Virus record (IMG/VR): IMGVR_UViG_3300030735_000039
Direction: 5' to 3' (one strand)
From: a virus
DNA length: 44,238 nt
The notes below the pieces were generated by a model, which was given only the letters and a program-made list of their open reading frames with translations, was not told where the DNA came from and did not search any database. How positions within the stretch are numbered: position 1 is the stretch's first letter; each line of letters opens with the position of its first letter. The translations under genes and the position numbers were made by a program. Positions 1,041-25,052 of this stretch are shown here, in pieces.

Positions 1041-3164
1041 CTACTCGTCGAAGTCGTCCTCATCGTCGGTCGCGCGGTCGGCGATGGCTTCGGCGACGCG
1101 CTGTCGACTGACGTGCATGACGCCGCTGGTCTTGTACTCGCCGTGCCCGGCGTCGTCCAGGACGCGCTTCAGGTCGCGGAATGACCAGCCGTCGTACTCG
1201 CCCGGGTTGTGGTCGCCGAGCCGGTGCAGGACGTCTTGCGTGCGCAGCTTCGTCTCGTTGCCGAGGACGGTCAGGATGTCGGCGAGGTGGTCCGCCGGCG
1301 CGTAGGCGGTCACCTCCGGGTCCGCGGTTCCCTCGACCAGTCCCATGGCGCGCTCGACGACCGGGGTGACCTCGTCGATGCCCTTGTCGGGGTCGCGGGC
1401 GACGTAGTGGGCGCGGACCACCTCGAACGGCTTGCCGCTGAACCCCACGGTCACAGCCGTACCGACGTCCTCGCCGGGAATCAGCGTGGTCGCGGTGATC
1501 CCGGCCTTGTGTCGGCCGGAGCCGAGCAGCCCGTCATTGGCGACGTGGTCACCGACGGCGAACGCGACACGGTGGGAGGTATTGCGGGTGACGTCGCGCG
1601 GGAGGCTGTCGGCGGTCGGGGAGACGGTGACCCAGACGAGGGTGATGGCCGTCTTGCGGGCCTTCTTCATCACCTTGATGGCCAGTTCAGCGGCCTCTTT
1701 GCCGTACTCCTTGTGCATGAACAGCTCGTGGCACTCGTCGAACACGACGACCTTGGGCCGCATCCGCGGATCCTTCAGGGCCAGTTCGCGGGTGACCTTC
1801 GTGGCGCCGTCGCCGAGTTCCTCCAGCAGCTTGCCCCGCATCGTCACCTCGTCCCGCAGGCTGCGCAGGGCCTTCAGAGCGGCCTCGATGTCCTCGTCGT
1901 CGTCGCCCTTGACCAGCGTCTTCAGGCGGGGCTTCAGCGGGTCGTAGTCGGTGTTGTACGCCATGACGTACGCCTCGACGATGACGAGCGGGTCGAGGAT
2001 CGCACCGAGCAGCAGGGCGATGACCAGGGACGACTTACCCGAGCCCATGATGCCGCCGACCATGTAGTTGGCGGCCATGAGCTTGCCGATGATGGGCTCG
2101 CCGCGCTGGGAGACGGCGACGGGCACGCCCTTGAAGTAGTCCGTGACGCCCTCGGTGAGGAGCGGCCACGGCGGGACTGCGCCGGAGAGGGAGCCCTGGT
2201 CGGCGACCCACAGGTCGAGGACGCCGGGCTGCTTCGGGGGTTCGGTCGGCCACACCTCGACGGGCTTGCGCATGAGGTTGTGGGCGAGGACGTTCTTCTT
2301 CCCGGCGATCATCTCGACGGTGACGCCGAGCGGGAGTTGCAGCTGGGTGTGCCAGCCGTTCCCGGACCGGCTGGTCGGGGACACCCAGCGCGGCTGCCAG
2401 CCGTCCTTGATGGCCTTGTTGAGCGGGGCGATGCCGAGGTTGCCGAGCGCGCGGAGGATGGCGCCCTCGTCGGGGACGACGTCGCGCTGCTCGGGGTCGC
2501 CGGGCAGTGCCCAGGCCGGGGCGGTCTGCCGGTGCCGTCCGACGGCCCACACCCCGGCGAGGGCGATGAACGGCAGGGCGACGAGGAGCGGGTCCCAGAT
2601 GACGCCGGCGATGAATGCGACCCAGGCGACGAACTCGATGACGGTGGCGAGCGGGGTGAGGACGTCGCTGACGTCGTGGTTGGCCCAGGCGAGCATGATG
2701 CCGAGCAGCAGCAGGACGCCGGCCCCGGCGGTGGCGCCCATGAACAGGGCCTTCGGGGCGTTGATGGCCAGCTGGAGGAGTTCCATGCGCCGCCGGTGGC
2801 GGGACTGCCGGAAGATGTAGGCGCGCTGCTCCCAGTCACGGGCGACGTCTTCCTGACCTGCGGCTTCGGCGGCTCGCATCATGCGTTCGTGGCGGGCGGT
2901 GGTGCGGGAGTCCCAGGCCCGGCGGGTCAGCAGGCGGGCGCCGCCGACGACGTAGGCGCCGTGTCGGACGACGGCCCTGTAGGAGCCGTGCTCGCGGGCC
3001 TCGACGACGACGCGCCGCAGGTGGTCGATGCGGACGCGGCGGCGGGGCCGCAGCTTGTCCTCAACAACCGTCTCGGGGGCCGGGGCGGGCGCGGGGGCGA
3101 GTTTGAGGAGGGACACCTGCGGCTGGTGGTGTCCGTTGACGCGTTCCAGGGTCGTGTCCGTCAT
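1041..3164 (-). CDS. FtsK/SpoIIIE-family dsDNA translocase, TraB/TraSA-like (N-terminal membrane segments, P-loop motor, C-terminal winged-helix-like tail)
   Basis: Walker A is GGIMGSGKSS and Walker B is VVVFDECHELF. Hydrophobic helices are present near residues 140-215 (LFMGATAGAGVLLLLGIMLAW, VAWVAFIAGVIWDPLLVALPFIALAGVWAV). The tail is acidic and wHTH-like. GGAGAG lies upstream of ATG 3164. Confidence 0.9.
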   Translation of the reverse strand: MTDTTLERVNGHHQPQVSLLKLAPAPAPAPETVVEDKLRPRRRVRIDHLRRVVVEAREHGSYRAVVRHGAYVVGGARLLTRRAWDSRTTARHERMMRAAEAAGQEDVARDWEQRAYIFRQSRHRRRMELLQLAINAPKALFMGATAGAGVLLLLGIMLAWANHDVSDVLTPLATVIEFVAWVAFIAGVIWDPLLVALPFIALAGVWAVGRHRQTAPAWALPGDPEQRDVVPDEGAILRALGNLGIAPLNKAIKDGWQPRWVSPTSRSGNGWHTQLQLPLGVTVEMIAGKKNVLAHNLMRKPVEVWPTEPPKQPGVLDLWVADQGSLSGAVPPWPLLTEGVTDYFKGVPVAVSQRGEPIIGKLMAANYMVGGIMGSGKSSLVIALLLGAILDPLVIVEAYVMAYNTDYDPLKPRLKTLVKGDDDEDIEAALKALRSLRDEVTMRGKLLEELGDGATKVTRELALKDPRMRPKVVVFDECHELFMHKEYGKEAAELAIKVMKKARKTAITLVWVTVSPTADSLPRDVTRNTSHRVAFAVGDHVANDGLLGSGRHKAGITATTLIPGEDVGTAVTVGFSGKPFEVVRAHYVARDPDKGIDEVTPVVERAMGLVEGTADPEVTAYAPADHLADILTVLGNETKLRTQDVLHRLGDHNPGEYDGWSFRDLKRVLDDAGHGEYKTSGVMHVSRQRVAEAIADRATDDEDDFDE

Positions 3165-3250: not shown

Positions 3251-3424
3251 CTACTTGCTCTTGCGGCGGAGCGCCTGCTTCTCGATCCGCTCGACCTTGC
3301 GCTTCAGGTCGGACAGGTCGACGCCGTCACCGGCCAGGCCGCGCTTCGCCATCCGGGCGGTGAGGGCGGCGACGCGGAGCTTTTCGCCGGTGGTGAAGTC
3401 GCTGAACTTGATGTCGTCGGCCAC
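3251..3424 (-). CDS. Hypothetical small basic/coiled protein (57 aa)
   Basis: GTG 3424 is preceded by GAGGGAG. The product is VADDIKFSDFTTGEKLRVAALTARMAKRG...IEKQALRRKSK. Codon bias looks coding. Confidence 0.55.
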   Translation of the reverse strand: MADDIKFSDFTTGEKLRVAALTARMAKRGLAGDGVDLSDLKRKVERIEKQALRRKSK

Positions 3425-14554: not shown

Positions 14555-14866
14555 CTACTTGCTGGTGGGTGCGGGCTGCTCGACAGGCGCCCCCGGCTGG
14601 ACCCCGGGGGCGTCGTCGTTGGTGGCTGCTGCCGACTGGACCTCGGCAGCAGCGGTCTCGGTGAGGCCGAGGAACCTCAGAAGGTCGGCCTTGCGGACGC
14701 GGAAAGCCCGCCCGAACTTCACGACCTCGATGGGGAACTCGCCGTTCTTGACCAGGGCGTAGCCGTTCGTCTCGCCGATGTTCAGGGCGGCGAACGCCTG
14801 AAGGACGGTGGGCATCGCGGGCAGATCGCGGACCTGCTCGGGGGAGAGCGGCGTGGCAGTCGTCAT
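14555..14866 (-). CDS. Excisionase-family/HTH_17 DNA-binding protein (candidate Xis)
   Basis: AFAALNIGETNGYALVKNGEFPIEVVKFGRAFRVRKADLLRFLG matches the excisionase-type winged helix. ATGA overlap with the Cro-like gene. Confidence 0.7.
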   Translation of the reverse strand: MTTATPLSPEQVRDLPAMPTVLQAFAALNIGETNGYALVKNGEFPIEVVKFGRAFRVRKADLLRFLGLTETAAAEVQSAAATNDDAPGVQPGAPVEQPAPTSK

Positions 14867-15153
14867 GACGCCACCTGCGCCTGAGCGGGAATGAAGGTGC
14901 GGCCGGCGCGCTCCATCTCGACGAACAGGACAAGCAGTTCGACGCCGAGGGCGGCGACGATGGCCTTGGCCTTGGGCTCCGGGACAGAGCGCTGGCTCCC
15001 GGACATCAGGGCGCCGATCGTTCCGTGGGCGACGCCTGCGGCCTCAGCCAGTTCGCGGCTGGTGATGGCCTCACCAGTACCGGTGCGCTCCATGAGCGTC
15101 TTCAGTCGGTCGCCGCTCGCGACCGCGTACATCGTGGGTGGAGATTCGCTCAC
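14863..15153 (-). CDS. Cro-like XRE-family HTH regulator
   Basis: ITSRELAEAAGVAHGTIGALMSGSQ is an HTH_3-type motif. GTG 15153 is preceded by GAGGTG (the track extends the ORF to 15210). It is divergent from the CI-like gene. Confidence 0.7.
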   Translation of the reverse strand: MSESPPTMYAVASGDRLKTLMERTGTGEAITSRELAEAAGVAHGTIGALMSGSQRSVPEPKAKAIVAALGVELLVLFVEMERAGRTFIPAQAQVAS

Positions 15154-15163
15154 GTTCACCTCG

Positions 15164-15389
15164 CTGGACAAAATGTCCCACTCGCAGGACAGCGATGAAC
15201 GGAGCATCACACAGGCTGAACACTTTGTCCAGCGTGTGTGACACCAGGGGGCGCACGAGCGTATTCGGTCAATGACTTAGGGCAACCTGGCGTAAGCGTC
15301 CAACGTGCTGAACAATCTGTTCAGTGCGTGAGATGAACCACCTGACTGACCTGCCCGTATGCCTCAATGGGCAGCGAAGACGCTGAACA
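15164..15389. promoter_or_regulatory. Immunity switch region with three 17-bp operators CTGRACA-N3-TGTYCMR plus one half-site
   Basis: O1 15164..15180 is CTGGACAAAATGTCCCA. O2 15216..15232 is CTGAACACTTTGTCCAG. O3 15308..15324 is CTGAACAATCTGTTCAG, a perfect palindrome. A half-site CTGAACA lies at 15383..15389. Confidence 0.65.
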
Positions 15390-15423
15390 GCCCGCGTAAC
15401 CCTCTGACCGCAGGAGTGGCAGC

Positions 15424-15864
15424 ATGCCCCCCATGGCTCCGAACGATTCCCAGCCACGCGAGAGCGTGAGCAGCCCTGAACGGCGCACGCAGTTTGCTGA
15501 CCTGATCCGGCGTCGACGGGCGGAGATGAACGTTGGCCTGAAAGCCTTCGCCGAGAAGGCGATTGATCCGGTTTCGGGAACCAGGGTGACGCGCGGGTGG
15601 GTGTACAGGCTGGAGCAGGGGGAGCCCGTTACGCCGCCCGTGTTCGAGGAGCTGCGCGCGCTGGCGACGGCCTGCGAGCTTCCCGTAGCGGTCCTTCAGG
15701 ATGCGGCTGGCAGTCAGTTCCATGGCGTCGATCCGCTGACGAGCGGTTCGAGTGAGGCCAAGGCCTATGTGCACAAGCTGGACAGCTTGCCGGCCGATCA
15801 GCGAGAGCGACTACTGCGACTCATCGACACGCTGGTTCCCCCTGGAGAGGGTGAAATCGAATAG
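15424..15864 (+). CDS. CI-like repressor (XRE-family HTH)
   Basis: AGGAG lies 7 nt upstream of ATG 15424. An HTH-like segment is present (LKAFAEKAIDPVSGTRVTRGWVYRLEQGE). The gene is co-oriented with the integrase and divergent from the Cro-like gene. Confidence 0.75.
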   Translation: MPPMAPNDSQPRESVSSPERRTQFADLIRRRRAEMNVGLKAFAEKAIDPVSGTRVTRGWVYRLEQGEPVTPPVFEELRALATACELPVAVLQDAAGSQFHGVDPLTSGSSEAKAYVHKLDSLPADQRERLLRLIDTLVPPGEGEIE

Positions 15865-16019: not shown

Positions 16020-16253
16020 ATGGAGTCACCGAAGCGCCCCGCCCAAAAGGTCTGGTTCCAGTTCGCCGATGAGATCCCCGACGATGAGGTGGTCGTAGCC
16101 GTCCAGACACCAGCCGGGATCGCGCTGCCGGTACGGCCTGGGGAGATGACACCCCTTCTCCTCCAGGCTTTGAACAGATCCTTCGATCACCTCGTCAGCG
16201 TCGGCCTGTTGCGGGTCGGCGATGATGGAGACGAACCTCCGCGAAGGGAGTAA
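16020..16253 (+). CDS. Hypothetical protein between repressor and integrase
   Basis: ATG follows the duplicated GGGAGATG. Codon bias is moderately coding. No family recognised. Confidence 0.45.
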   Translation: MESPKRPAQKVWFQFADEIPDDEVVVAVQTPAGIALPVRPGEMTPLLLQALNRSFDHLVSVGLLRVGDDGDEPPRRE

Positions 16254-16257
16254 CCCG

Positions 16258-17937
16258 ATGCCGTCAGCCCGCCGCGCAGGGAGTGTCTACAAACGCTGCG
16301 AGTGCCGCGGTACCGACGGCAAACTGCTGGGCAACAAGTGCCCGAAGCTCACAAAGAAGAACCACGGCGCCCCAGCACTCCGCCAGGAACTGCCGCCCAG
16401 CGCCGAGGGAACACGCCGGACTTTCCGGCGAACCGGATACGAGACTGTGACGAAGGCCCAGGGCGACCTGTCCCGCCTGCAAGCCATCCTCGCGCTCGCC
16501 GGTGACGACGCTGCCGAACAGCAGCGCGTCGGTGATCTCCTCGCCGACATCAACAAGAGGCGTGCGGACATCCCCGAGACCGCTGAGGTGCAGCGACGGC
16601 TCGGCGTCGGAGTCCCGCTCGACGGCAAGATGACGGTTGGCGACTGGCTCGACCACGTCATGGCCAACAAGGCCACGCGCACCACCACGAACCACGGTTA
16701 CAACAGCCACATCCGCGTCCACCTGAAGCCCGCACTCGGGCACCTGCGCCTGGACCGTCTCAGCGTCGGCCACTGCCAGGACATGTTCAACGCGATCGAC
16801 GACCGCAACGACCTCATCCGGGCCGAGAACGCCGCTCGCCACGAGCAGGTCGCCCGCTGCAAGCGCGGGAAGCCGGGCGCCCCGAAGGCGAAAGAGCGCG
16901 CGCAGCTGGCAGCCGAGCGGGCCAAGCTCGCCGAGATGCCGCCCTTCCGTCGCATTACCGGCCCGGCTACGAAGCAGGCGATCCGCCGCACCCTCCGCAT
17001 GGCCCTGAACAAGGCCATCGGCGCACAGCTCATCACCTTCAACGCCGCGAAGCACGTCGAGCTGACGTCCGCCGCCCGGCCCAAGGGACTGCTGTGGACG
17101 GCCGAGCGGGTGGCCCGCTGGGAAGAGACGGGAGAGAAGCCGGGCCCGGTCATGGTGTGGACGCCCGCCCAGCTCGGCGCGTTCCTCGACGCGGCCGAAG
17201 GCGACCGGCTGTACGCGTTCTTCCACCTGATCGCCCACCACGGCCTGCGCCGCGGCGAGGGCGTCGGCCAGGGATGGGGCGACTTCTCGCCGGAGCGCAA
17301 GGAGATCCGAGTGTCCGCCGAAATCGTGGTGGACGGCTGGACGCCGATCGAGACGGCCCCGAAGACCGACGGGTCCGTGGGCATCGTGAAGGTCGACGCG
17401 GAGACCGTGCGGGTCCTGCTGGCCCACCGCGAGCAGCAGCTGCGGGAGCGCGACGCGTGGAACGCACACGCCGCCGAGCAGCGCGCGGCCGGCGAGGACG
17501 TAGCCGACTGGACTGACACCGGGAAGATGTTCGCCGCCGAAGACGGGGCGTGGCTCCATCCGGACGTCGTGTCCAAGGCGTTCCGCAGGATCGCGGACGG
17601 CGCCGGCCTACCGCCCATCAACCTCCGGGACCTCAGGCACGGAGCGGCAGCCCTGGTGAAGGCAGGCGGCGGGGACATCCACGACGCCAAGGTGAAGCTG
17701 CGGCACGGAACCATTCAGCTCACCTCGGACACCTACATGGAGCTGTTCGAGGAGTACGAGGACGAGCTGACGGAGAAGGCCGCCGCCGCGGTTCCTCGCG
17801 CCCGCCGATCACGCGAAGAGCCCCCTGCTCCGGTCGCTGTACCGGAGCAGGGGGCCAGCACGTCGCAGCCAGCAGACGCGGTTGATGACGGGATCACCGT
17901 ACGGGCCAGCACTGACAACGACGAGCCCTCGGCGTAG
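16258..17937 (+). CDS. int: Tyrosine recombinase/phage integrase (560 aa)
   Basis: The catalytic signature is spread as HHGLRRGEG (Arg), LRDLRHGAAAL (H-x-x-R) and LRHGTIQLTSDTY (His...Tyr). The N-terminus SVYKRCECRG...KCPKL resembles an arm-binding domain. ATG 16258 is preceded by GGGAG. Confidence 0.92.
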   Translation: MPSARRAGSVYKRCECRGTDGKLLGNKCPKLTKKNHGAPALRQELPPSAEGTRRTFRRTGYETVTKAQGDLSRLQAILALAGDDAAEQQRVGDLLADINKRRADIPETAEVQRRLGVGVPLDGKMTVGDWLDHVMANKATRTTTNHGYNSHIRVHLKPALGHLRLDRLSVGHCQDMFNAIDDRNDLIRAENAARHEQVARCKRGKPGAPKAKERAQLAAERAKLAEMPPFRRITGPATKQAIRRTLRMALNKAIGAQLITFNAAKHVELTSAARPKGLLWTAERVARWEETGEKPGPVMVWTPAQLGAFLDAAEGDRLYAFFHLIAHHGLRRGEGVGQGWGDFSPERKEIRVSAEIVVDGWTPIETAPKTDGSVGIVKVDAETVRVLLAHREQQLRERDAWNAHAAEQRAAGEDVADWTDTGKMFAAEDGAWLHPDVVSKAFRRIADGAGLPPINLRDLRHGAAALVKAGGGDIHDAKVKLRHGTIQLTSDTYMELFEEYEDELTEKAAAAVPRARRSREEPPAPVAVPEQGASTSQPADAVDDGITVRASTDNDEPSA

Positions 17938-17953
17938 AATCGAGGGACGGACA

Positions 17954-17985
17954 AAGGGCCTCTGACCTGCGGGTCAGGGGCCCTT
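17954..17985 (+). terminator. 14-bp stem-loop after int
   Basis: AAGGGCCTCTGACC-TGCG-GGTCAGGGGCCCTT read directly, 17 nt after the int stop. Confidence 0.6.
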
Positions 17986-18157
17986 CCTGCTGGCCCGGTG
18001 CTGGCCCGAAGGCCACGCAAGAGCGCGATACGAGACGGCACGAGACACGGTGAAGACTCGAGAATTTTGGAGCCGGAACCTAGTCTGACCTGGGGTCGAC
18101 ATCGACGGACGCGCCGACGTGATACGAGCCGGTACGAGCCGCCTTGGGCAGTCCGCA

Positions 18158-18203
18158 GACTTTTAATCCATTGGTTGTGGGTTCGAGTCCCACAGGGCCT
18201 ACC
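18158..18203 (+). other. 3' portion of a tRNA-Lys(UUU) (anticodon loop to discriminator), the presumed attP core
   Basis: The segments read CTTTTAA loop, TCCAT, TGGTT, T-arm GTGGG-TTCGAGT-CCCAC, and acceptor AGGGCCT-A. The spacing is canonical, but no matching 5' half (D-arm or acceptor 5' strand) is present upstream. Confidence 0.7.
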
Positions 18204-18207
18204 GAAT

Positions 18208-18242
18208 CGCCCCCAGCTCAGAGGCACTTAGAGCTGGGGGCG
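18208..18242 (+). terminator. 12-bp stem-loop followed by GTTTT
   Basis: CGCCCCCAGCTC-11 nt-GAGCTGGGGGCG read directly, immediately 3' of the tRNA-like core. Confidence 0.5.
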
Positions 18243-18335
18243 AGGTCGTTTTCGTACCGTCTCGTGTCGTCCTGCTGGCCCGCTGCTGGCCCGAAATCCT
18301 GGGTGCATGGTGCGGCCTGGTGAGTGTAAGAAGCG

Positions 18336-18365
18336 CGGGCGGTCACCCCGAAAGGTGACCGCCCG
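18336..18365. terminator. 12-bp perfect GC-rich stem-loop in the P' arm
   Basis: CGGGCGGTCACC-CCGAAA-GGTGACCGCCCG read directly. There is no adjacent gene end, so its function is unclear. Confidence 0.35.
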
Positions 18366-18549
18366 GCCCCGCCTCCGGCGCCCTGTCCGAGGCCTCTCGG
18401 CCCCAACGCCATCGGCGGGTTCATCCCGCTGCCGGAACGCGCGGCTATCCGGCGGCGGGCGTCTTCAGCGTCTGCCCGCTCTCTACAAGATCACACAATG
18501 CATCAGAAGTGATGCTGACAGGTGATCGTCTGCGTCGCAGCTTGGACGG

Positions 18550-18777
18550 GTGCCCGACGACCTGCCTGAACTGATCCGTGCCTGCCAGCAGCAGGGCGAC
18601 CGCATCCGCCAGGCACGGGAGTACGCCAACCTGTCCCAGGAGACTCTCGCCGAGCGGGCGGACCTGGGGCGGTCGACCATCCAGCGCATCGAGTCGGGGT
18701 TCACCGGCATCAAGTTCACGCACCTGTACCTCATCGCTCGCGCACTGGACGTCCAGGTCGCGGATCTCGTTCGGTGA
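18550..18777 (+). CDS. Small XRE-family HTH regulator (75 aa)
   Basis: IRQAREYANLSQETLAERADLGRSTIQRIESG is a canonical HTH_3 motif. The start is GTG. Confidence 0.75.
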   Translation: MPDDLPELIRACQQQGDRIRQAREYANLSQETLAERADLGRSTIQRIESGFTGIKFTHLYLIARALDVQVADLVR

Positions 18778-18843
18778 GCCCGCCGCCTCGGGGGTCGCAG
18801 CGGCGGGCTCACCCAGGCCGCCCCTTTGCGGCACGGGGCGGCC
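18776..18843. terminator. Two tandem hairpins between convergent genes (18776..18810 and 18816..18843)
   Basis: GAGCCCGCCGC/GCGGCGGGCTC (11 bp, includes the XRE stop codon) and GGCCGCCCC/GGGGCGGCC (9 bp). Confidence 0.55.
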
Positions 18844-18881
18844 ACCTCGGGCGCCGGAGGTACCGGCCGGCGCCGAGGGGC

Positions 18882-19046
18882 TCAGCGGCGTATCGGCGTG
18901 GGCCAGGTCTGCCGCGGTGTCCTCTTGCAGGGCTTTGTATGGAGATACACGGTGGGGGCCGCCGTGGAGCCCGAGTCGGGGATGACCGTGTCGTATCCCT
19001 GTCCGGGGCTGATCGGCTGGTGGCAGCGTCCGCAGGTCTTGCTCAC
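18882..19046 (-). CDS. Tiny Cys/His protein 3 of the operon (54 aa); not in supplied ORF track
   Basis: Manual translation gives VSKTCGRCHQPISPGQGYDTVIPDSGSTAAPTVYLHTKPCKRTPRQTWPTPIRR. GTG 19046 overlaps the upstream stop (GTGA). The stop TGA at 18882..18884 was verified. Confidence 0.55.
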   Translation of the reverse strand: MSKTCGRCHQPISPGQGYDTVIPDSGSTAAPTVYLHTKPCKRTPRQTWPTPIRR

Positions 19047-19240
19047 GGCTTCCTCACCTTCCGGGGGCGCGTGGAGTGACAGGAACAGGGGCAGCGGTGC
19101 ACGAGCACCACCCCCTTCGAGTGGGGCAGTGGAATGTCCTCAGTCCGACGGCACTTGCCGTGCAGCTGCTCGTACTCGGGTCGCCGGGCAACCGCGCACT
19201 CGGGCGACAGGCTGTCGACGTCGGGGGAAGGCTCGCTCAT
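19043..19240 (-). CDS. Tiny Cys/His protein 2 of the operon (65 aa)
   Basis: The product is MSEPSPDVDSLSPECAVARRPEYEQLHGKCRRTEDIPLPHSKGVVLVHRCPCSCHSTRPRKVRKP. ATGA overlap with the upstream gene. Confidence 0.55.
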   Translation of the reverse strand: MSEPSPDVDSLSPECAVARRPEYEQLHGKCRRTEDIPLPHSKGVVLVHRCPCSCHSTRPRKVRKP

Positions 19241-19401
19241 GGCTGGTCTCCGAGTGGCGTGAGGTTGTGCTTCAGGCGGCACTTGGCGCAGGCGAACAGA
19301 CGTCCCGGGCCGCCGACCTGGACGAGCCGTGCGGTGTCGCTCAGCCCGTTGTGCCAGCTGCACCAGGCGATCAGGCGCGGGGGCTCTTCCTGCTCGGTCA
19401 T
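19237..19401 (-). CDS. Tiny Cys/His protein 1 of the operon (54 aa)
   Basis: The product is MTEQEEPPRLIAWCSWHNGLSDTARLVQVGGPGRLFACAKCRLKHNLTPLGDQP. ATGA overlap with the upstream gene. Confidence 0.55.
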   Translation of the reverse strand: MTEQEEPPRLIAWCSWHNGLSDTARLVQVGGPGRLFACAKCRLKHNLTPLGDQP

Positions 19402-19736
19402 CGCCGCTCCCCTAACTGCGCCCACAGTCCGCACTCGTCGGTCGTCAGACCGGACTGGTGTGTCAGACCGGAGACGATCAGCCAGCCGGGACCGTGGCTG
19501 TAGAGCAGGGGGATCTGGTCGGGCCCGCGCGCCGTGATGCGGATCCGGTGCCCTGCCGTCGACAGGGTCATCTCGACGACGTCGGCCCCCGAGCCGAGCA
19601 CCGATACGAAGAGTTCGTTCGCGATCAGCGGGGCGTCGGGATGTTTGACGCGGCCAGCCGTCCACAGGCGGACGTGGGTCGCTTCAACGGGTACGCCCTT
19701 GAATGCCTTTTGCCACGTATGGCCGGACTCGGGCAT
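19398..19736 (-). CDS. Small anti-sigma-factor/HATPase_c-like protein (112 aa), apparently degenerate in ATP-binding motifs
   Basis: ...EATHVRLWTAGRVKHPDAPLIANELFVSVLGSGADVVEMTLSTAGHRIRITARGPDQ...GPGWLIVSGLTHQSGLTTDECGLWAQL follows the layout of the small Streptomyces 'ATP-binding protein' (RsbW-like) family. ATG 19736 is preceded by GGGGG. Confidence 0.65.
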   Translation of the reverse strand: MPESGHTWQKAFKGVPVEATHVRLWTAGRVKHPDAPLIANELFVSVLGSGADVVEMTLSTAGHRIRITARGPDQIPLLYSHGPGWLIVSGLTHQSGLTTDECGLWAQLGERR

Positions 19737-19760
19737 AGCTGACCCCCGGAATCGGTGCCT

Positions 19761-19851
19761 ATCTGAGTACAGGTAGTGCTTATCTGTACTCAGATTGTCG
19801 CCGAGATTGGCGCGGGTCAAGCGGGACGGGAGAGTATGTGTACTCAGATTG
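19761..19851. promoter_or_regulatory. Three copies of an operator-like motif (CTGTACTCAGAT) in the divergent promoter region
   Basis: ATCTGAGTACAG at 19761..19772 and CTGTACTCAGAT at 19784..19795 form a perfect 12-bp inverted repeat with an 11-bp spacer. A 17-bp direct repeat TAT(C/G)TGTACTCAGATTG lies at 19781..19797 and 19835..19851. Confidence 0.65.
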
Positions 19852-20636
19852 ACTCGATCATTCGAAGTGGGGGTGTCTCGGTGGCACAGCCTGAGTACCT
19901 GCGAATCGCCGCCGACCTGCGGCGACGCGTCTCCTCCGGCGAGTACGGGCCCGGCGACCAGATCCCCACGCTCCCCGCCCTCTGCCGGGAGTACGGCGTA
20001 TCCGACACCACCATCCGCAGCGCGCTTCGCCTTCTCGCCAACGAGGGACTCATCGAGACCCGGGCCCGCGCCGGCACCCGCGTGCGCCCCCGGCCACCCG
20101 TCCACCGCATGGCCGCCGACCGCTACCGGTCCAAGCCCGGCGCCAAGTCGACGCCCTTCACCCGCGACCAGGGCATCGGCTGGTCCGAGTACCGGCTCGA
20201 CAAGCGGTTCGAGAAGGTGCAGGCGGACGCGGAGTTGGCGGCGCTCTTCGAGTGCGAGGTGGGGGAGCGGCTCCTCGCCCGGCACTTCGTGTTCTACGAC
20301 AACGACCAGCCCACCCAGATGAGCACGTCCTACGTGCGGTGGTCCGACGTCGAAGGGACGCCAGTCGCCGACCCCATCAGCGAGCCGTGGCCGGGCGGCA
20401 CCCGGGCGCAGATGGCGAGCCTCGGTATCCGTGTCACCAGGATTACGGAGTCGTTCACCGCAGGCATGCCGACCGAGCTGGAGGCGGCGACGCTACGGAT
20501 CGGCGCCGGCGTGCCGGTGCTGCGGTACACCCGGCGGCACATCGCTGACACGGGCCGCATTGTCGAGGTGGCTCACCCGATCGTGCGCCGCGGCGACACC
20601 ACCGTGGTGGACTTCGCCATCGACCTCGACGACTGA
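19836..20636 (+). CDS. GntR-family transcriptional regulator, HutC subfamily (wHTH + UTRA effector domain)
   Basis: The N-terminus EYLRIAADLRRRVSSGEYGPGDQIPTLPALCREYGVSDTTIRSALRLLANEGLIETRARAGTRV is canonical for GntR. The C-terminal roughly 170 aa look UTRA-like. The start is ambiguous: ATG 19836 (GGGAGAG upstream) or GTG 19881 (GGGGG upstream). The track start 19776 is unlikely. Confidence 0.9.
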   Translation: MCTQIDSIIRSGGVSVAQPEYLRIAADLRRRVSSGEYGPGDQIPTLPALCREYGVSDTTIRSALRLLANEGLIETRARAGTRVRPRPPVHRMAADRYRSKPGAKSTPFTRDQGIGWSEYRLDKRFEKVQADAELAALFECEVGERLLARHFVFYDNDQPTQMSTSYVRWSDVEGTPVADPISEPWPGGTRAQMASLGIRVTRITESFTAGMPTELEAATLRIGAGVPVLRYTRRHIADTGRIVEVAHPIVRRGDTTVVDFAIDLDD

Positions 20637-20654
20637 GCCCCGAGCATGACGAAA

Positions 20655-20691
20655 CGCCCCCTGCACGGCCGCATGGGCCGCGCAGGGGGCG
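20655..20691. terminator. Bidirectional compound hairpin between the convergent GntR gene and lysis cassette
   Basis: The outer stem is CGCCCCCTGC/GCAGGGGGCG (10 bp) and the inner stem is CGGCC/GGCCG. Confidence 0.6.
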
Positions 20692-20697
20692 CTGTCG

Positions 20698-21057
20698 TCA
20701 GACTCCAGTCCGGTTGTACTCGTCCACCCGGTCGGGCGGCGCGGGAGGCTCGATGCGGTTCGCGCGCATCTGCGTTGTCAGCTCGCCGACGTACGAGGCG
20801 AACGCCCGTACCAGCGAGCGCAAAGACTTCACCTCGTCGCGGGTATCCCGCAGATCCTCCCTCAGTTCCTTCTTGATGGCCTCGAACGCGGCCCGGTCCT
20901 CGGCCCGCTGGTTCGGCTCGGCCTGCGCGGTCGCCGCCGCCAGGTTCGCCTCCGCCGTTGCCGCCGCTGCCTGCCGCGTGGCCCGCGCGGCAAACAGGCC
21001 GGCCACCACCATGCCGACTGTCCCGAATGCTGCGACCAATCCCGCCCACACCGTCAC
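20698..21057 (-). CDS. N-terminally membrane-anchored coiled-coil protein, last gene of the lysis cassette
   Basis: GTG 21057 overlaps the upstream stop (GTGA). The TM segment VWAGLVAAFGTVGMVVAGLF is followed by an Ala/Glu/Arg-rich helical region. Confidence 0.6.
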   Translation of the reverse strand: MTVWAGLVAAFGTVGMVVAGLFAARATRQAAAATAEANLAAATAQAEPNQRAEDRAAFEAIKKELREDLRDTRDEVKSLRSLVRAFASYVGELTTQMRANRIEPPAPPDRVDEYNRTGV

Positions 21058-21497
21058 GGCGCCTCGCCTTTCCGGGCGGCTCTCGGCGCGTGGGGGACCG
21101 AATGCTCGGGCACCGTGGCCGCCCACAGAATCACCCCGACGTGCGAGGTCAGGTACCAGATCGCGACGTAGGCGCCGCGAGAGAACTGGCCGCTCACGAC
21201 GGCGGCCGTGTAGGCGATCGCCCACACCGTGGGGGGAATTAGGGCGACGACGAAGCCGAGACGGTCGCGGCCGATGCGGAGGAACGCTGACGAGCCTGTG
21301 ATCAGTCCGGCCGTGATCCACAGCCAGGCCCAGTGCCGGATGTCGCACAGGCTCGTCAGCAGCTGCAAGCCCTGGGTGGGCGGCGGGTCGACGAGCATGC
21401 CGATTCCCCAGCAGGCTTTCCCCACGCCGAGGATCAGCAGGAAGGCGCCGCGGCGGCCCAGCAGTTCACGCAGCCGCCGGGCCGCGCGGCACGACAT
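21054..21497 (-). CDS. Four-helix membrane protein in the lysis cassette (possible second holin or holin accessory)
   Basis: The ATG overlaps the holin stop (TGATG). There are four hydrophobic segments. Confidence 0.65.
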   Translation of the reverse strand: MSCRAARRLRELLGRRGAFLLILGVGKACWGIGMLVDPPPTQGLQLLTSLCDIRHWAWLWITAGLITGSSAFLRIGRDRLGFVVALIPPTVWAIAYTAAVVSGQFSRGAYVAIWYLTSHVGVILWAATVPEHSVPHAPRAARKGEAP

Positions 21498-21682
21498 CAG
21501 GCGTCCGGGGCGGTGGGCTTGTTGGGCACCGCGTAGGTGATACCCCACGCGCCGAGGACGGCGAGCACGATGGTGACGCCCTCGCCGGTGGTGACCACGT
21601 TGTCCTGCACGGCCGTGACCGCGGCTGCGGATCCGGCCGCGAGACCGGCGATGAGGGACTTGGCGATGCTGGCGATTCTCAT
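21497..21682 (-). CDS. Putative holin (61 aa, two hydrophobic helices)
   Basis: Hydrophobic segments SLIAGLAAGSAAAVTAV and VTIVLAVLGAWGITYAV. It lies immediately downstream of the endolysin. Confidence 0.65.
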   Translation of the reverse strand: MRIASIAKSLIAGLAAGSAAAVTAVQDNVVTTGEGVTIVLAVLGAWGITYAVPNKPTAPDA

Positions 21683-21685
21683 GGG

Positions 21686-22414
21686 TCAGTTGCCCTTCTT
21701 CAGTTCGGCGACCTCGGCGCGCAGTGCGGCGACGTCCTTGGACAGGTGGGTGATCGCGTCGTAGATCTCCCGCAGGAAGCTGATCGGCTTCCACGTCTTG
21801 TTCGTCGCCAGGGTCGGGGAGGTCGACGGGGCAGGCGCCCGGTCCTGCTCCCACACGGCGTCGTGCATCTGGACCTTGTCCATGTCTGCTCCCTCGCTGC
21901 TGTCCGGGCGCGGGGCGCCCTGCTTGACCCAGGCGTAGACCGCGTCGCCGGGGCACGATGTGGCGTAGCCGTCGCGGTGGCCGCCGAGCCATGTGCCGGC
22001 CGGGCCTTCCTTGCGGCAGTAGTCGATGGCGTCGCGGGCGCCGTGCAGCTGCGCGTCGGTCGGCTTCACGAGGTCGGAGGAGCCGACGAGCAGGCAGACG
22101 GCGTAGTCCTGCTCGTTCAGGCTGGTGTTGCCGTTGGCGCTGTTCCGGCGCTTCAGGCCGCGGCCCTCGTACACGTAGCCGTGCGTGCACACCAGGAACG
22201 AGTAGCCGATGTCGGACCAGCCGTTGCCGTCCATGTGCTGGTCCTGGAGCAGCCGTATGTAGGCGGCGCACCGGTCGTGCACCCGGTCCGCGTAGGCGGT
22301 GCCGAGGTAGTGGAGCTTCACGCCGCGGCGGGCGCCGCTGTACGGGGTGGCGCCGTTCGGGGTTCGGTAGGCCCGCGCCCCCCACTGGGCGCGAGTGACG
22401 AGCTTGATGGTCAT
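21686..22414 (-). CDS. Endolysin: N-acetylmuramoyl-L-alanine amidase (PGRP/Amidase_2 type) with C-terminal extension
   Basis: LVTRAQWGARAY, GWSDIGYSFLV, YEGRG and GHRD...TSCPGD are classic Amidase_2 motifs. ATG 22414 is preceded by GGAGGA (the track start is 22429). Confidence 0.9.
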   Translation of the reverse strand: MTIKLVTRAQWGARAYRTPNGATPYSGARRGVKLHYLGTAYADRVHDRCAAYIRLLQDQHMDGNGWSDIGYSFLVCTHGYVYEGRGLKRRNSANGNTSLNEQDYAVCLLVGSSDLVKPTDAQLHGARDAIDYCRKEGPAGTWLGGHRDGYATSCPGDAVYAWVKQGAPRPDSSEGADMDKVQMHDAVWEQDRAPAPSTSPTLATNKTWKPISFLREIYDAITHLSKDVAALRAEVAELKKGN

Positions 22415-22481
22415 GGGTCCTCCAGGCATGGCGAACGCCCCGGCCTGAGTGGCTCGGGGCGGCGGGGAACAAGACGTGGGG

Positions 22482-25052
22482 TCAGGTGGTGTAGCCGTGC
22501 ACCAAGATGCCGCTGCCTGCCCCGAACGTCCCGGCCGTGAAAGCTCCGGCCGTCACGGTGGGCGGCGTGCTCAGCCCTGTATCGGTGCCGCCGAATCCGG
22601 GGCTGACGGAGGCGAGGACGTCGGCGACGGAGCCCTCGGAGACCAGGTTGCACACTGTGGTCGCCTTGATCATGACGCCGAGGTAGTGCAGCCCGCCATA
22701 CGTCGTCGTGTACGAGCTGGCGGCCCCGGCGGTGGTCTGGGCGATCGCCAGCGTCTTCACCGTGTTGGCCGCCCAGGCGGCGGTGAGCTGGTCGGCGGTG
22801 CGGGCGAGCGCGACGCGGCTGCGGTCGTGCAGTGTGAACCACCAGTTCGTCGGGGTCACGGCGGCGGTGCCCCCGGAGGCGAACGACAGGTTCGAGATCA
22901 CGGCGCCCTTGGGAAGCCAGATCGGCACCAGGTACAGGCTGCCCGACGTCGGCGTGGACGTCGTACCGCACCGCAGGCGGCTGTTCGTCTCGTACCGGCC
23001 GGACGGGCGCGCCAGCAGATCGAGGACGCCGGCCGCGTCGAACGGCGAGGGCTCGGCGCCGGTGGACTGGTCGTCCAGCCCAGTGTCGCCGAGGTCGTTG
23101 CTGTGCCTGCGGACGTTCGTACAGGTCGAGGTGATGCCGACCCCGGCGGCCACCTCGTTGCCGCTGCCGAACTTCCTCACCTTGTTGCCGGTGATCAGCA
23201 GGCCGTCAGCGGAGGTCGAGCAGCGGATGCCCCACGACCCGGCTGCCGCGCGGCTGGCGCCCTTGACGTAGTTGTCCTGCACCTGGATGTCGGAGCCGCC
23301 GATGACGTGGACCCCGTTCACGCCGGCGTCCCGGATCTGGTTCACGGCGATCGTGATGCCGGTGCCGGTGTCGCACGAGATGCCGGAGCCGCCCGGGGCG
23401 TAGACCCGGTTGGGGCCGACGACGCCGCCGATCACCTGTTCCTGGCTGATGCCGGTGCCGCCGGTGTTGCGGACGGTGTTGCCGGTCACGGTGTAGTCGG
23501 AGACGTAGTAGAGACGGATCCCGTTCTCGCCGTCGTCCGCGCCGTCGATCGTGTTGCCCGTGATCGTGACCCCGGTGATCCGCCCGGTCGTCTCCCCGAA
23601 GAGCAAGATCGGGTCGTCGACGCCGGTGCAGTCCACGATGTCGTTGTCCGTGATCACCAGGTTCTCCATCACCTGGCTGGCGTTGGTGACCACGCCGGAC
23701 GTGTTGGTGGAGTCGGCGGCGTCCGCGCTGATGATCGACCGGCAGCGGATGCCCGACCCGCAACTCTTCATCGTGTTGCGGGAGATGACGGAGTCGTTGT
23801 ACGCGTACGGGACGACGCCGTACTGAAGGCAGCCCTCGAACGTGTTGTCCAGGATCTTGATGCGGCGGTGGGCGACGTCCACGGTCGCGGAGTGCGAGCC
23901 GACACCGCGCGGCCAGGCGGTCGTGCCCGCGGTGCCGGAGGCGCCGACGTAGCAGTCCCGGATGGTCACGTCTTCGCAGACCGTGTTGTCGTACGGTCCG
24001 AAGCCTCCGAACACACCCGAGCTTTTCGCCAGGTCGACCTGGACGGCCTCGCTGAAGTCCCTGCCGCCGGGGTCGACATAGCCGAGGAATCGGCAGCGTT
24101 CGACGGTCGCGTTCTTCGTCGAGTTCAGTTCGATCGCGTGGTAGCCGCTGACGTCCTGGATCACGACGTCGCTGATGTTCACCCCGCGGGCGTGCCCGAT
24201 GGAGATGCACATTGCCGAGGCGGTCAGCCCGGAGGTGGTGCCGCGCATGTTCCACAGGCCGCCCTCGATGAGGATGTTCCCGTGGCCGGTGTACCCGCCG
24301 AACGTCTGGTCGGAGTCGCCGTTCAGCAGCATCGTCCCGGCGTAGTTCCGCCGGAACTCGGCCCCCGGCATCAGGGTCAGCCGGGTGTTGCGGCGGATCC
24401 GCAGGATCTCGCCGATCATGTAGACGCCGGACGGGACGATGACCCAGCCGCCGCCCGCCGCGTACGCCGCGGTCAGCGCCTGGTTGATGAACGGGGCATC
24501 GTTTCCGGTGCCGTCGCCGAGTGCCCCGTAGACGCGCGGGTTGTAGATCCGCATGCCGGACAGCTGGAGGTTCTCCGGCGTGAACGTCCCGTCCACGGTC
24601 AGGTCGCCCTCGACATCGAGGCCGTCCACCGTGGCGCCGCCGGTGACGGTCAGGCCGTCCTCGACGCTCAGCCCGGCCTCGAACACGGTCGGGCCCTGCA
24701 CGGTGCCGCCGTCCTCCTTCGACAGGGCGTCGGCCGCCGCGCTGGCGGCTTCCTGCGCGAGTTCACGGGCGGCCTGGTACCAGCGGACCGGGGTGCCGCC
24801 GGGCCCGTTGTACGCGTACTCGATCGCGGTGACGGCATCCGCCTTGAAGGCCCGGATGGCGCCCGGCGTCGCGCTGCCGACGGCGTTGGTGCGCAGCTCG
24901 CTGATGGCGGTCGTCCCGTCCGTCTCGAACAGGGCGGTGACCAGCTCGCTGGTGCCCGCCCGGTACACCAGCACCTGATAGTCGGGGACGACGTTGCCCT
25001 GTGCGTCGGTGAGGACGTCGGCCGGTGTTCCGCCGAAGGTGTAGAGCGGCAT
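22482..25052 (-). CDS. Tail fiber/tailspike with right-handed beta-helix (pectate-lyase-3-like) domain; candidate depolymerase
   Basis: YNPRVYGALGDGTGNDAPFINQALTAA...VIVPSGVY is the N-cap typical of pectate_lyase_3 domains. Repeated PbH1-like turns follow (ITDNDIVD, VTITGNTIDG, YTVTGNTVRN, ITGNKVR). Confidence 0.8.
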   Translation of the reverse strand: MPLYTFGGTPADVLTDAQGNVVPDYQVLVYRAGTSELVTALFETDGTTAISELRTNAVGSATPGAIRAFKADAVTAIEYAYNGPGGTPVRWYQAARELAQEAASAAADALSKEDGGTVQGPTVFEAGLSVEDGLTVTGGATVDGLDVEGDLTVDGTFTPENLQLSGMRIYNPRVYGALGDGTGNDAPFINQALTAAYAAGGGWVIVPSGVYMIGEILRIRRNTRLTLMPGAEFRRNYAGTMLLNGDSDQTFGGYTGHGNILIEGGLWNMRGTTSGLTASAMCISIGHARGVNISDVVIQDVSGYHAIELNSTKNATVERCRFLGYVDPGGRDFSEAVQVDLAKSSGVFGGFGPYDNTVCEDVTIRDCYVGASGTAGTTAWPRGVGSHSATVDVAHRRIKILDNTFEGCLQYGVVPYAYNDSVISRNTMKSCGSGIRCRSIISADAADSTNTSGVVTNASQVMENLVITDNDIVDCTGVDDPILLFGETTGRITGVTITGNTIDGADDGENGIRLYYVSDYTVTGNTVRNTGGTGISQEQVIGGVVGPNRVYAPGGSGISCDTGTGITIAVNQIRDAGVNGVHVIGGSDIQVQDNYVKGASRAAAGSWGIRCSTSADGLLITGNKVRKFGSGNEVAAGVGITSTCTNVRRHSNDLGDTGLDDQSTGAEPSPFDAAGVLDLLARPSGRYETNSRLRCGTTSTPTSGSLYLVPIWLPKGAVISNLSFASGGTAAVTPTNWWFTLHDRSRVALARTADQLTAAWAANTVKTLAIAQTTAGAASSYTTTYGGLHYLGVMIKATTVCNLVSEGSVADVLASVSPGFGGTDTGLSTPPTVTAGAFTAGTFGAGSGILVHGYTT

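Follow-up and report, generated by a model that had tools for sequence, protein, structure and literature searches.

Streptomyces encode dozens of anti-sigma-like proteins of the AbaA/RsbW type, few of which have known partners. The AbaA paralogues of the WhiJ/BldB/AbaA loci are strongly repressed in normal growth, and overexpression of one of them, abaA6, leads to a sporulation defect in S. venezuelae (PMC10294661). In mobile elements, KorSA of pSAM2 represses pra, and SCO3932/SCO3933 comprise a divergent pair of a GntR gene and a small gene with operators (PMC8584621, PMC2440964). Here we describe a cassette in the IMG/VR virus record IMGVR_UViG_3300030735_000039 (the whole 44,238-nucleotide stretch, 44.2 kb with 70% G+C, is referred to as “the window”), in which a gene for a GntR/HutC-family repressor is divergent from an operon of four very short genes (P1 to P4). 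The window represents a temperate, tailed phage of Streptomyces type, nearly all of whose genes are on the minus strand. We read the cassette as an autonomous, ligand-gated accessory operon of Streptomyces prophages, whose pseudo-anti-sigma protein (P1) would work by binding a partner, and we give this tentative reading a probability of about 0.45.

P1 and the small proteins of the operon

The four open reading frames (ORFs) of the operon overlap in a chain on the minus strand:

19398-19736, minus strand: P1, 112 amino acids (aa), first gene of the operon, characterized by AlphaFold 2 (AF2) model, hhalign and Foldseek
19237-19401, minus strand: P2, 54 aa, a short CxW(C/H)...ACxxC zinc-ribbon-like protein with a C-terminal LxPLxDxP tail
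19043-19240, minus strand: P3, 65 aa, rare and rich in Cys/His, with the pattern LSPEC...H..C...PLPH...RCxCxCH
18882-19046, minus strand: P4, 54 aa, GTG start, last gene, a CxxC...PGxxY...H...C mini-protein

This chain was proposed in a preliminary description based on the letters alone, and both its coordinates and its junctions (ATGA, ATGA, and GTGA) are right. A frame plot supports it, as the maximum of third-position GC (GC3) shifts frame exactly at the boundaries of all four ORFs. The GC3 of P1 to P4 is 0.82-0.85, compared with 0.88-0.97 in the neighbouring phage genes. The four ORFs look coding, and by these features they appear to be genuine, translationally coupled genes. None of P1, P2, P3 or P4 had a match in the Pfam, PHROGs, NCBIfam and PADLOC scans (E<=1).

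The P1 family is narrow, given that a profile search recovered only 54 representatives among 1.84 billion proteins. The homologues of P1 form at least 162 clusters at 90% identity, all from Streptomyces, 110-140 aa in length and labelled “hypothetical,” and their median dN/dS (omega) of ~0.27 indicates purifying selection. Aligned by hhalign with six canonical Streptomyces HATPase_c_2 domains, the family profile matched with 96.4% probability (P 1.2e-9, 103 columns), and the controls, one reversed and 20 column-shuffled, all scored <=0.7%. Preserved in the match are the alpha1 Arg, a G2-like glycine loop and, at the C terminus, the strand “GxxVWAEL.” With a deeper alignment that included distant members, AF2 yielded a model of P1 with pLDDT 94 and pTM 0.88; the poor model from a shallow alignment (pLDDT 54) was not used. 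The 19 best Foldseek matches to the model in the PDB are all anti-sigma kinases (UsfX, SpoIIAB, and RsbW), and the TM score (TMq) against SpoIIAB/RsbW/UsfX is 0.75-0.78, with an E of 4e-5. Among viral proteins, only a HATPase-domain protein from Streptomyces phage Nesbitt gave a significant structural match. P1 is thus predicted to be a remote HATPase_c_2 homologue with the SpoIIAB-type Bergerat/GHKL alpha-beta sandwich, and modelling gave the anti-sigma kinase fold and not an unrelated one.

The same hhalign alignment revealed that the N-box Asn is lost in P1 (“sELxsNA” is aligned with “AxELfxaVl”), as is the G1 Asp (“eVxDxsp” is aligned with “ItAxGxxP”). Both residues are missing from the consensus of the family, and the ATP lid region is shortened. 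The early suggestion of a degenerate RsbW/SpoIIAB-type domain lacking these residues is therefore borne out by hhalign, AF2 and Foldseek. With these two residues replaced, P1 is probably non-catalytic, and we infer from the fold and the residue losses that it is a pseudo-kinase that would act solely by binding. The direct match to PF13581 that had been expected for P1 was not obtained. There is none for P1 at E<=1 or for any of ~40 P1-family domains at E<=10, and the only PF13581 match in the P1-family set is to a separate C-terminal domain of one protein, P0167. The kinship is seen at the profile-profile and fold level only. A profile search of the PDB sequences with P1 returned chance matches only, for example to reelin.

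In a distant branch, P1-like domains were found together with canonical HATPase_c_2 domains (labels beginning with L denote individual loci). In L107 (4145-4942; P0167) the two are fused, and in L106 (5001-5788) they are overlapping separate genes, next to genes for the R subunit of a type I restriction system and for a Ser/Thr kinase. Both loci keep a GntR/UTRA gene divergent from the P1-like gene.

Our survey took in 95 loci that encode a P1 relative, 63 of them from Streptomyces genomes and 32 from IMG/VR viral contigs. A gene of the P2 family (detected with a family hidden Markov model, HMM) lies directly 3′ of P1 in 54 of these, including 48 of the 51 in which P1 is at least 65% identical, and the 4-nt overlap of the two genes is frequent among the loci. 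The family motif is CxW(C/H)...(Y/F)ACxxC, with C14, H17, C38 and C41 as the Cys/His positions of P2, and close relatives of the short P2 of the window occur in L008, L090, L094 and L075. Relatives of P4, which has Cys/His at C5, C8, H36 and C40, follow P2-like genes in 18 of the 95 loci (family HMM), and the ligand positions are conserved in the family. P3 was not found in any of the surveyed loci. It has only five homologues (52-67% identity; omega 0.25-0.47), among which C15, H27, C30, H40, C50, C52, C54 and H55 are invariant ligand candidates and H48 is not conserved. The preliminary description had listed the positions correctly for P2 and P4; for P3, its “H49” is H48, and it missed the invariant C15 and H40. 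P2, P3 and P4 each carry Cys/His positions, as had been noted early on, and these are conserved within the respective families; the three proteins are probably zinc-binding. The idea that the three are diverged paralogues was rejected, as hhalign probabilities among the three families are <=0.3%.

The closest relatives of the phage of the window (L073-L075, IMG/VR contigs) have P1 89% and GntR 94-96% identical to those of the window and carry the order P1-P2-P2′-P4 (e.g., L075, 5336-5873), so that a second P2 paralogue replaces P3. Comparison of these loci suggests that P3 was swapped in, in what appears to be a clean exchange of a single gene within an overlapping operon. Elsewhere, P3 relatives belong to small operons transcribed divergently from the gene of a short GntR, of 90 aa and consisting of the HTH only (L069 and L070; HTH, helix-turn-helix), and once directly after a P2-like gene. 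The P3 homologues of L068-L070 adjoin genes for a WhiJ-type XRE protein (DUF5753), DUF397 genes and integrase remnants, and the P3 operon of L069 sits inside a type VII secretion region (WXG100, EccD, and FtsK-like). Besides the fusion in L107, two natural fusions were detected: one of P1 to a P2-like domain, with a convergent small XRE gene (P0139/L072), and one of P1 to a P3-like domain, with a divergent GntR gene (P0128/L071).

The GntR repressor and its predicted operators

The gene divergent from P1 and the region between the two comprise the following features:

19881-20636, plus strand: GntR/HutC-family repressor, winged HTH and UTRA domain, divergent from P1 (Pfam)
19737-19880: divergent control region, ~145 bp
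19820-19815, minus strand: -35 element TTGACC, with a 17-nt spacer to the -10-like element
19797-19792, minus strand: -10-like element CAATCT
19836-19849: operator OA, just upstream of the GntR start
19782-19795: operator O1, overlapping the -10/start region of the P1 promoter
19761-19774: operator O2, inverted relative to O1 and 22 bp away

Both domains of GntR were identified with Pfam (PF00392, 7e-19; UTRA, PF07702, 1e-15). We favour the GTG start at 19881, because the homologues all begin with VAQPEY. Among proteins of solved structure, its closest relatives are 3EET, TraR (1V4R, a plasmid repressor), YvoA/NagR and DasR. A GntR gene with UTRA is divergent from P1, ~145 bp away, in 94 of the 95 loci. 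It is also the better conserved of the two, with an omega of 0.15 and 75-96% identity across loci versus 0.27 and 45-89% for P1. Among the GntR genes of 91 loci, the UTRA domain is 89% identical with an omega of 0.13, and the HTH is 80% identical with an omega of 0.22. It is unusual for a mobile-element repressor to have its effector domain more constrained than its DNA-binding domain.

The motif that the operon had been said to share with the divergent GntR gene is real. The divergent region holds three copies of the 14-mer ATCTGAGTACAGAT (<=1 mismatch), and the rest of the window holds none, against 0.53 expected by chance. The copies are 14-bp imperfect palindromes of the form ATCTG-N4-CAGAT. 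In an alignment of 66 intergenic regions, TTGACC is near-invariant and all three operator sites are conserved. The central bases of the three operators vary together between loci, and they track two residues of the recognition helix of GntR. TT (in SE-TT-IR) goes with the operator core GAGTAC, AP with GGATAC, IT with GTATAC or GAATAC, VT with GATTAC, and AT with GACGTC, which makes at least five operator-matched specificity classes of recognition helix. This covariation constitutes strong computational evidence for GntR binding to these sites, for repression of both P1 and its own gene, and for a diversification of GntR into specificity classes that would not cross-react, consistent with the earlier proposal of a ligand-type GntR controlling the operon through shared operators.

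Genomic setting, distribution and possible role

Along the minus strand, the gene order of the phage is terminase, tail, endolysin, small membrane-type genes, cassette, attP core, integrase and early arm. The features around the cassette are as follows:

21686-22414: endolysin (Amidase_2), upstream of the cassette in the minus direction
20637-20697: strong hairpin between the last gene of the late/lysis arm and the GntR stop
18778-18881: three GC-rich stem-loops, located between the stops of the convergent P4 and XRE genes, that probably terminate transcription in both directions
18550-18777, plus strand: XRE/Cro-type HTH protein of 75 aa, convergent with the operon and adjoining attP (Pfam HTH_3, 6e-14)
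~18150-18206, plus strand: putative attP core, the 3′ two-thirds of a tRNA-Lys(TTT) gene, read by eye from the sequence
16222-17937: tyrosine integrase
15424-15864, plus strand: CI-like HTH_31 protein, beside the integrase
14863-15210, minus strand: Cro-like HTH protein, divergent from the CI-like gene
14555-14866, minus strand: excisionase-like (Xis-like) HTH_17 protein

The position between the lysis genes and attP is as first described. The tRNA-Lys(TTT) fragment, in which we read by eye the anticodon loop CTTTTAA, the T-arm GGTTCGAGTCCCAC and the CCA end, is presumably the attP core; it was not called by ARAGORN or Rfam, and Rfam reported no RNA family in 17800-20000. The region between the convergent stops folds at -86.8 kcal/mol (z -3.4); the hairpins that the operon had been said to share with the XRE gene are present there, as three stem-loops and not the two reported. 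The hairpin at 20637-20697 folds at -58.4 kcal/mol (z -7.85; 0 of 200 shuffles folded equally well) and would shield the cassette from late transcription. With hairpins at both ends, the cassette appears to be insulated on both sides. Its own predicted promoter (the conserved TTGACC and the -10-like element), the flanking hairpins and the slot between phage modules are the marks of a moron. The XRE protein has no domain besides HTH_3 (Pfam), and a convergent XRE homologue closes the cassette in 15 of the 95 loci and in L072. The constant partner of P1 across the loci is GntR, with the XRE gene and the exact set of small genes varying.

The CI-like, Cro-like and Xis-like genes span 14555-15864 and adjoin int, and therefore represent an ordinary phage immunity region that is distinct from the cassette. 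A role of GntR as the main immunity repressor of the phage was rejected in view of this region and of the confinement of the operators to their own locus. The early arm encodes Prim-Pol, a helicase, a C5 methylase and an FtsK-like protein. The last is a 707-aa FtsK/SpoIIIE-like ATPase (1041-3164, minus strand) with weak nSTAND/AAA_16 matches, and a DUF6257 protein is encoded nearby in the arm (3251-3424, minus strand). FtsK-type translocases are a hallmark of Streptomyces conjugative elements; a backbone of the RepSA or TraSA type, as in AICEs (the integrative and conjugative elements of actinomycetes), was not found in the element of the window, which is a tailed phage. A phage-encoded sigma factor was considered as the target of P1, and none was found in the early arm.

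The autonomous unit in the slot between lysis genes and att recurs in many unrelated prophages, as had been anticipated. Genes for tail fibre, endolysin and holin-like proteins lie upstream of GntR in ~24 of the 60 genome loci examined, as in the window, and on viral contigs P1 is usually 0.3-1.7 kb from the contig end. At a distance of 0.6-2.6 kb past P1, ~17 of the 60 loci have a gene for a tRNA (Lys, Met/Asn, Arg, Ile or Val); given the variety of these tRNA genes, we place the cassette at the att-proximal end of elements with differing integration sites. Neither P1 (tblastn) nor the locus (blastn) had a match in 50,697 deposited phage records, and in PLSDB there were three meaningful matches only, on replicons of Streptomyces or Embleya. 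A literature search found no paper on the cassette or on anti-sigma-like proteins of Streptomyces phages.

A recurrent alternative cargo was seen at about 17 loci, where genes for a UCP032817-like protein (PF27765) and for a SAM-dependent methyltransferase come after the P2-like gene (e.g., L003, 10336-11148, and L009, 6590-7801). In L003 and L016 the P2-like gene is apparently fused to that for the UCP032817-like protein.

The mechanism that we propose for an accessory operon of this kind begins with a HutC-type GntR dimer that, as the computational evidence on the operators suggests, would sit on the three 14-bp sites and silence its own gene and the P1 promoter. A small-molecule signal at the UTRA domain would then free the promoter from the repressor, and the coupled operon would make P1 and the small proteins. 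P1 could act stoichiometrically as a binding or sequestering subunit alongside the small Cys/His proteins, chiefly the P2-type ribbon; conserved adjacency, the 4-nt overlaps and the natural fusions point to such a partnership of P1 with P2-type proteins. The target is most likely, if speculatively, a host sigma, anti-sigma or developmental network, and P1 might trap a sigma factor or pair with a host protein of the AbaA/RsbW type. We favour such a target because the fold is that of dimeric sigma-factor binders, because distant relatives of P1 are paired with or fused to canonical anti-sigma-like proteins, and because overexpression of an AbaA paralogue blocks sporulation in S. venezuelae (PMC10294661). 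A more specific version makes GntR, P1 and P2 a prophage device for sensing a metabolite, in which a kinase-dead subunit with a zinc-ribbon adaptor pairs with a host anti-sigma/AbaA protein or captures a sigma factor, and could freeze sporulation or tip the balance between lysis and lysogeny. This version we regard as doubtful.

Several observations weigh against the accessory-operon reading. P1 falls below every curated HMM threshold. A simple sigma-70 scanner called no promoter in 19737-19880, where the hexamers are our own reading. The scan of the early-arm and cassette genes turned up neither a sigma factor nor a STAS gene, the structural genes being outside the scan. In the branch of P1 with 45-64% identity, unrelated small genes follow instead (for DUF6415, DUF7848, a UCP032817-like protein with a methyltransferase, and others), and since the set of small genes varies, the effector function may lie with P1 by itself or vary from one element to another. 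The term “prophage accessory” is perhaps too narrow, as intact cassettes also occur away from recognizable phage genes. Finally, the omega of P2 is 0.65-0.9 and that of P4 ~1, both at saturating divergence, so that the purifying selection that had been expected for the small ORFs is evident for P3 and not for these two. P4, in which the codon-position GC pattern is atypical as well (GC1<GC2), is for both reasons the weakest of the four ORFs.

Two rival explanations fare equally, and we consider each of them unlikely. The presence of a CI/Cro/Xis region beside int already weighs somewhat against the first, that the cassette is a switch of induction or of the life cycle in the style of kil-kor/Pra or of an antirepressor, for which sensor-controlled small antirepressors of other phages provide a precedent. 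GntR would then be a metabolite sensor, and P1 with P2 would inactivate a CI-like repressor or GntR, or activate excision or lytic genes. The strong conservation of UTRA suits a sensor, the operator/recognition-helix classes look like immunity groups without cross-talk, and the very tight linkage of GntR and P1 would suit a direct feedback loop. However, GntR operators are found at their own locus only, and the P1 fold is that of an anti-sigma protein and not of a DNA-binding one. The divergent arrangement of GntR and a small gene with operators resembles SCO3932/SCO3933 and KorSA/pra (PMC8584621, PMC2440964), and the GntR HTH is like that of TraR, a plasmid transfer repressor. Against this, the narrowness of the P1 family speaks against identity with the apparently widespread Pra family, and intact cassettes persist where the remaining prophage is gone or absent, as would not be expected if the cassette served induction alone.

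The survival of cassettes in such remnants fits the second explanation, a moron for defence or superinfection exclusion, the products of which would block incoming phages or mobile elements, for example by abortive shutdown of host transcription with GntR as a safety catch. The att-proximal slot after the lysis genes, the autonomous promoter-terminator unit, the GC3 below that of the neighbouring phage genes and the variable cargo behind P1 are all consistent with this. Some of the intact cassettes without visible phage genes lie near CRISPR-Cas, CHAT/nSTAND, type I restriction or Ser/Thr kinase genes, and one is on a 439-kb plasmid, but the neighbourhoods that resemble defence islands are anecdotal (three loci). 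Moreover, no recognizable effector (nuclease, membrane protein or NTPase) is encoded, and PADLOC found no defence-model match for P1 to P4; the XRE protein was matched by generic HTH models only.

We consider it quite improbable that GntR and P1 alone are functional and that P2 to P4 are fast-evolving filler or spurious ORFs, as the near-neutral omega of P2 and P4, the codon-position GC of P4, the lack of family matches and the differing composition of the small genes between loci would allow, given the frame-specific GC3 that tracks each ORF, the P2 and P4 families in 54 and 18 loci with conserved Cys/His ligands, the low omega and eight invariant Cys/His of P3, the conserved 4-nt overlaps, and the fusions of P1 with P2-like and P3-like domains.

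The accessory-operon reading is of wider relevance, as the interplay of prophages with the Streptomyces developmental programme is little explored and the cassette is both compact and widespread (~95 loci in the survey). It offers several experimental handles: the repressor has operators that can be predicted and specificity variants that occur in nature, its ligand domain is conserved, the anti-sigma fold is probably without catalysis and would have to act by binding, and the mini-proteins are sometimes fused to P1. Once found, the partner and the ligand would reveal the signals that prophages sense and the host switch that is touched. In addition, the GntR-operator classes could provide an orthogonal set of repressors and operators for Streptomyces engineering.

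Comparison with known systems

The predicted fold of P1 is common to SpoIIAB, RsbW and UsfX (HATPase_c_2, PF13581). These proteins are 130-146 aa long, whereas P1 has 112 aa, a shorter lid, and neither the N-box Asn nor the G1 Asp.

The WhiJ/BldB/AbaA loci likewise have a small anti-sigma-like HATPase protein beside a dedicated transcription factor and small proteins. Their regulator is a WhiJ-type XRE protein (HTH_31 and DUF5753), in place of which the cassette has GntR/HutC with UTRA, and their small proteins are of the DUF397 type, unlike the Cys/His ribbons and the degenerate P1 of the phage-borne cassette. The initial assignment to triads of this kind consequently fell: the XRE protein of the window has HTH_3 only, without DUF5753, DUF397 is absent, and P1 fails PF13581.

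KorSA-pra, SCO3932-SCO3933 and the Kor/TraR systems share with the cassette a HutC-type GntR protein of a mobile element, autoregulation and repeated intergenic sites, and the HTH of the cassette GntR resembles that of TraR. However, the hosts of KorSA-pra are AICEs and not a tailed phage, the operator sequence differs, and the gene controlled here encodes an anti-sigma fold.

An analogous cassette occupies the slot after endolysin and holin and before the integrase in phage Raleigh (gp25-gp28), and also in SV1, ToastyFinz, SoJo and Tubberson:

20385-23105 of record NC_047795.1 (L105): Raleigh cassette, with a divergent regulator, the HATPase_c_2 protein gp26 and two overlapping small genes

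Unlike P1, gp26 is a canonical HATPase_c_2 protein, with the N-box and Asp intact (PF13581, 1e-13). The Raleigh regulator, of 450 aa and without a Pfam match, stands in place of GntR, and the small genes are unrelated to P2 to P4. The integrase beyond the Raleigh cassette is a serine integrase.

Among phage morons, VqmA-Phi/Qtip of vibriophage VP882 is also an independent promoter-terminator unit in which a ligand-type factor lies next to a small effector. VqmA-Phi is an activator, in contrast to the repressor here, the fold of the effector differs, and in the cassette no link to the CI-like repressor is shown.

The cassette falls outside these systems because it fails PF13581 and the ATP signatures, has neither a WhiJ-type regulator nor DUF397, and is not on an AICE. 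It is made of parts of known kinds, namely a HutC repressor, an anti-sigma/AbaA-like fold, zinc-ribbon mini-proteins and a moron-like unit, and while a member of neither, it echoes in its layout both the kil-kor modules and the WhiJ/BldB/AbaA loci.

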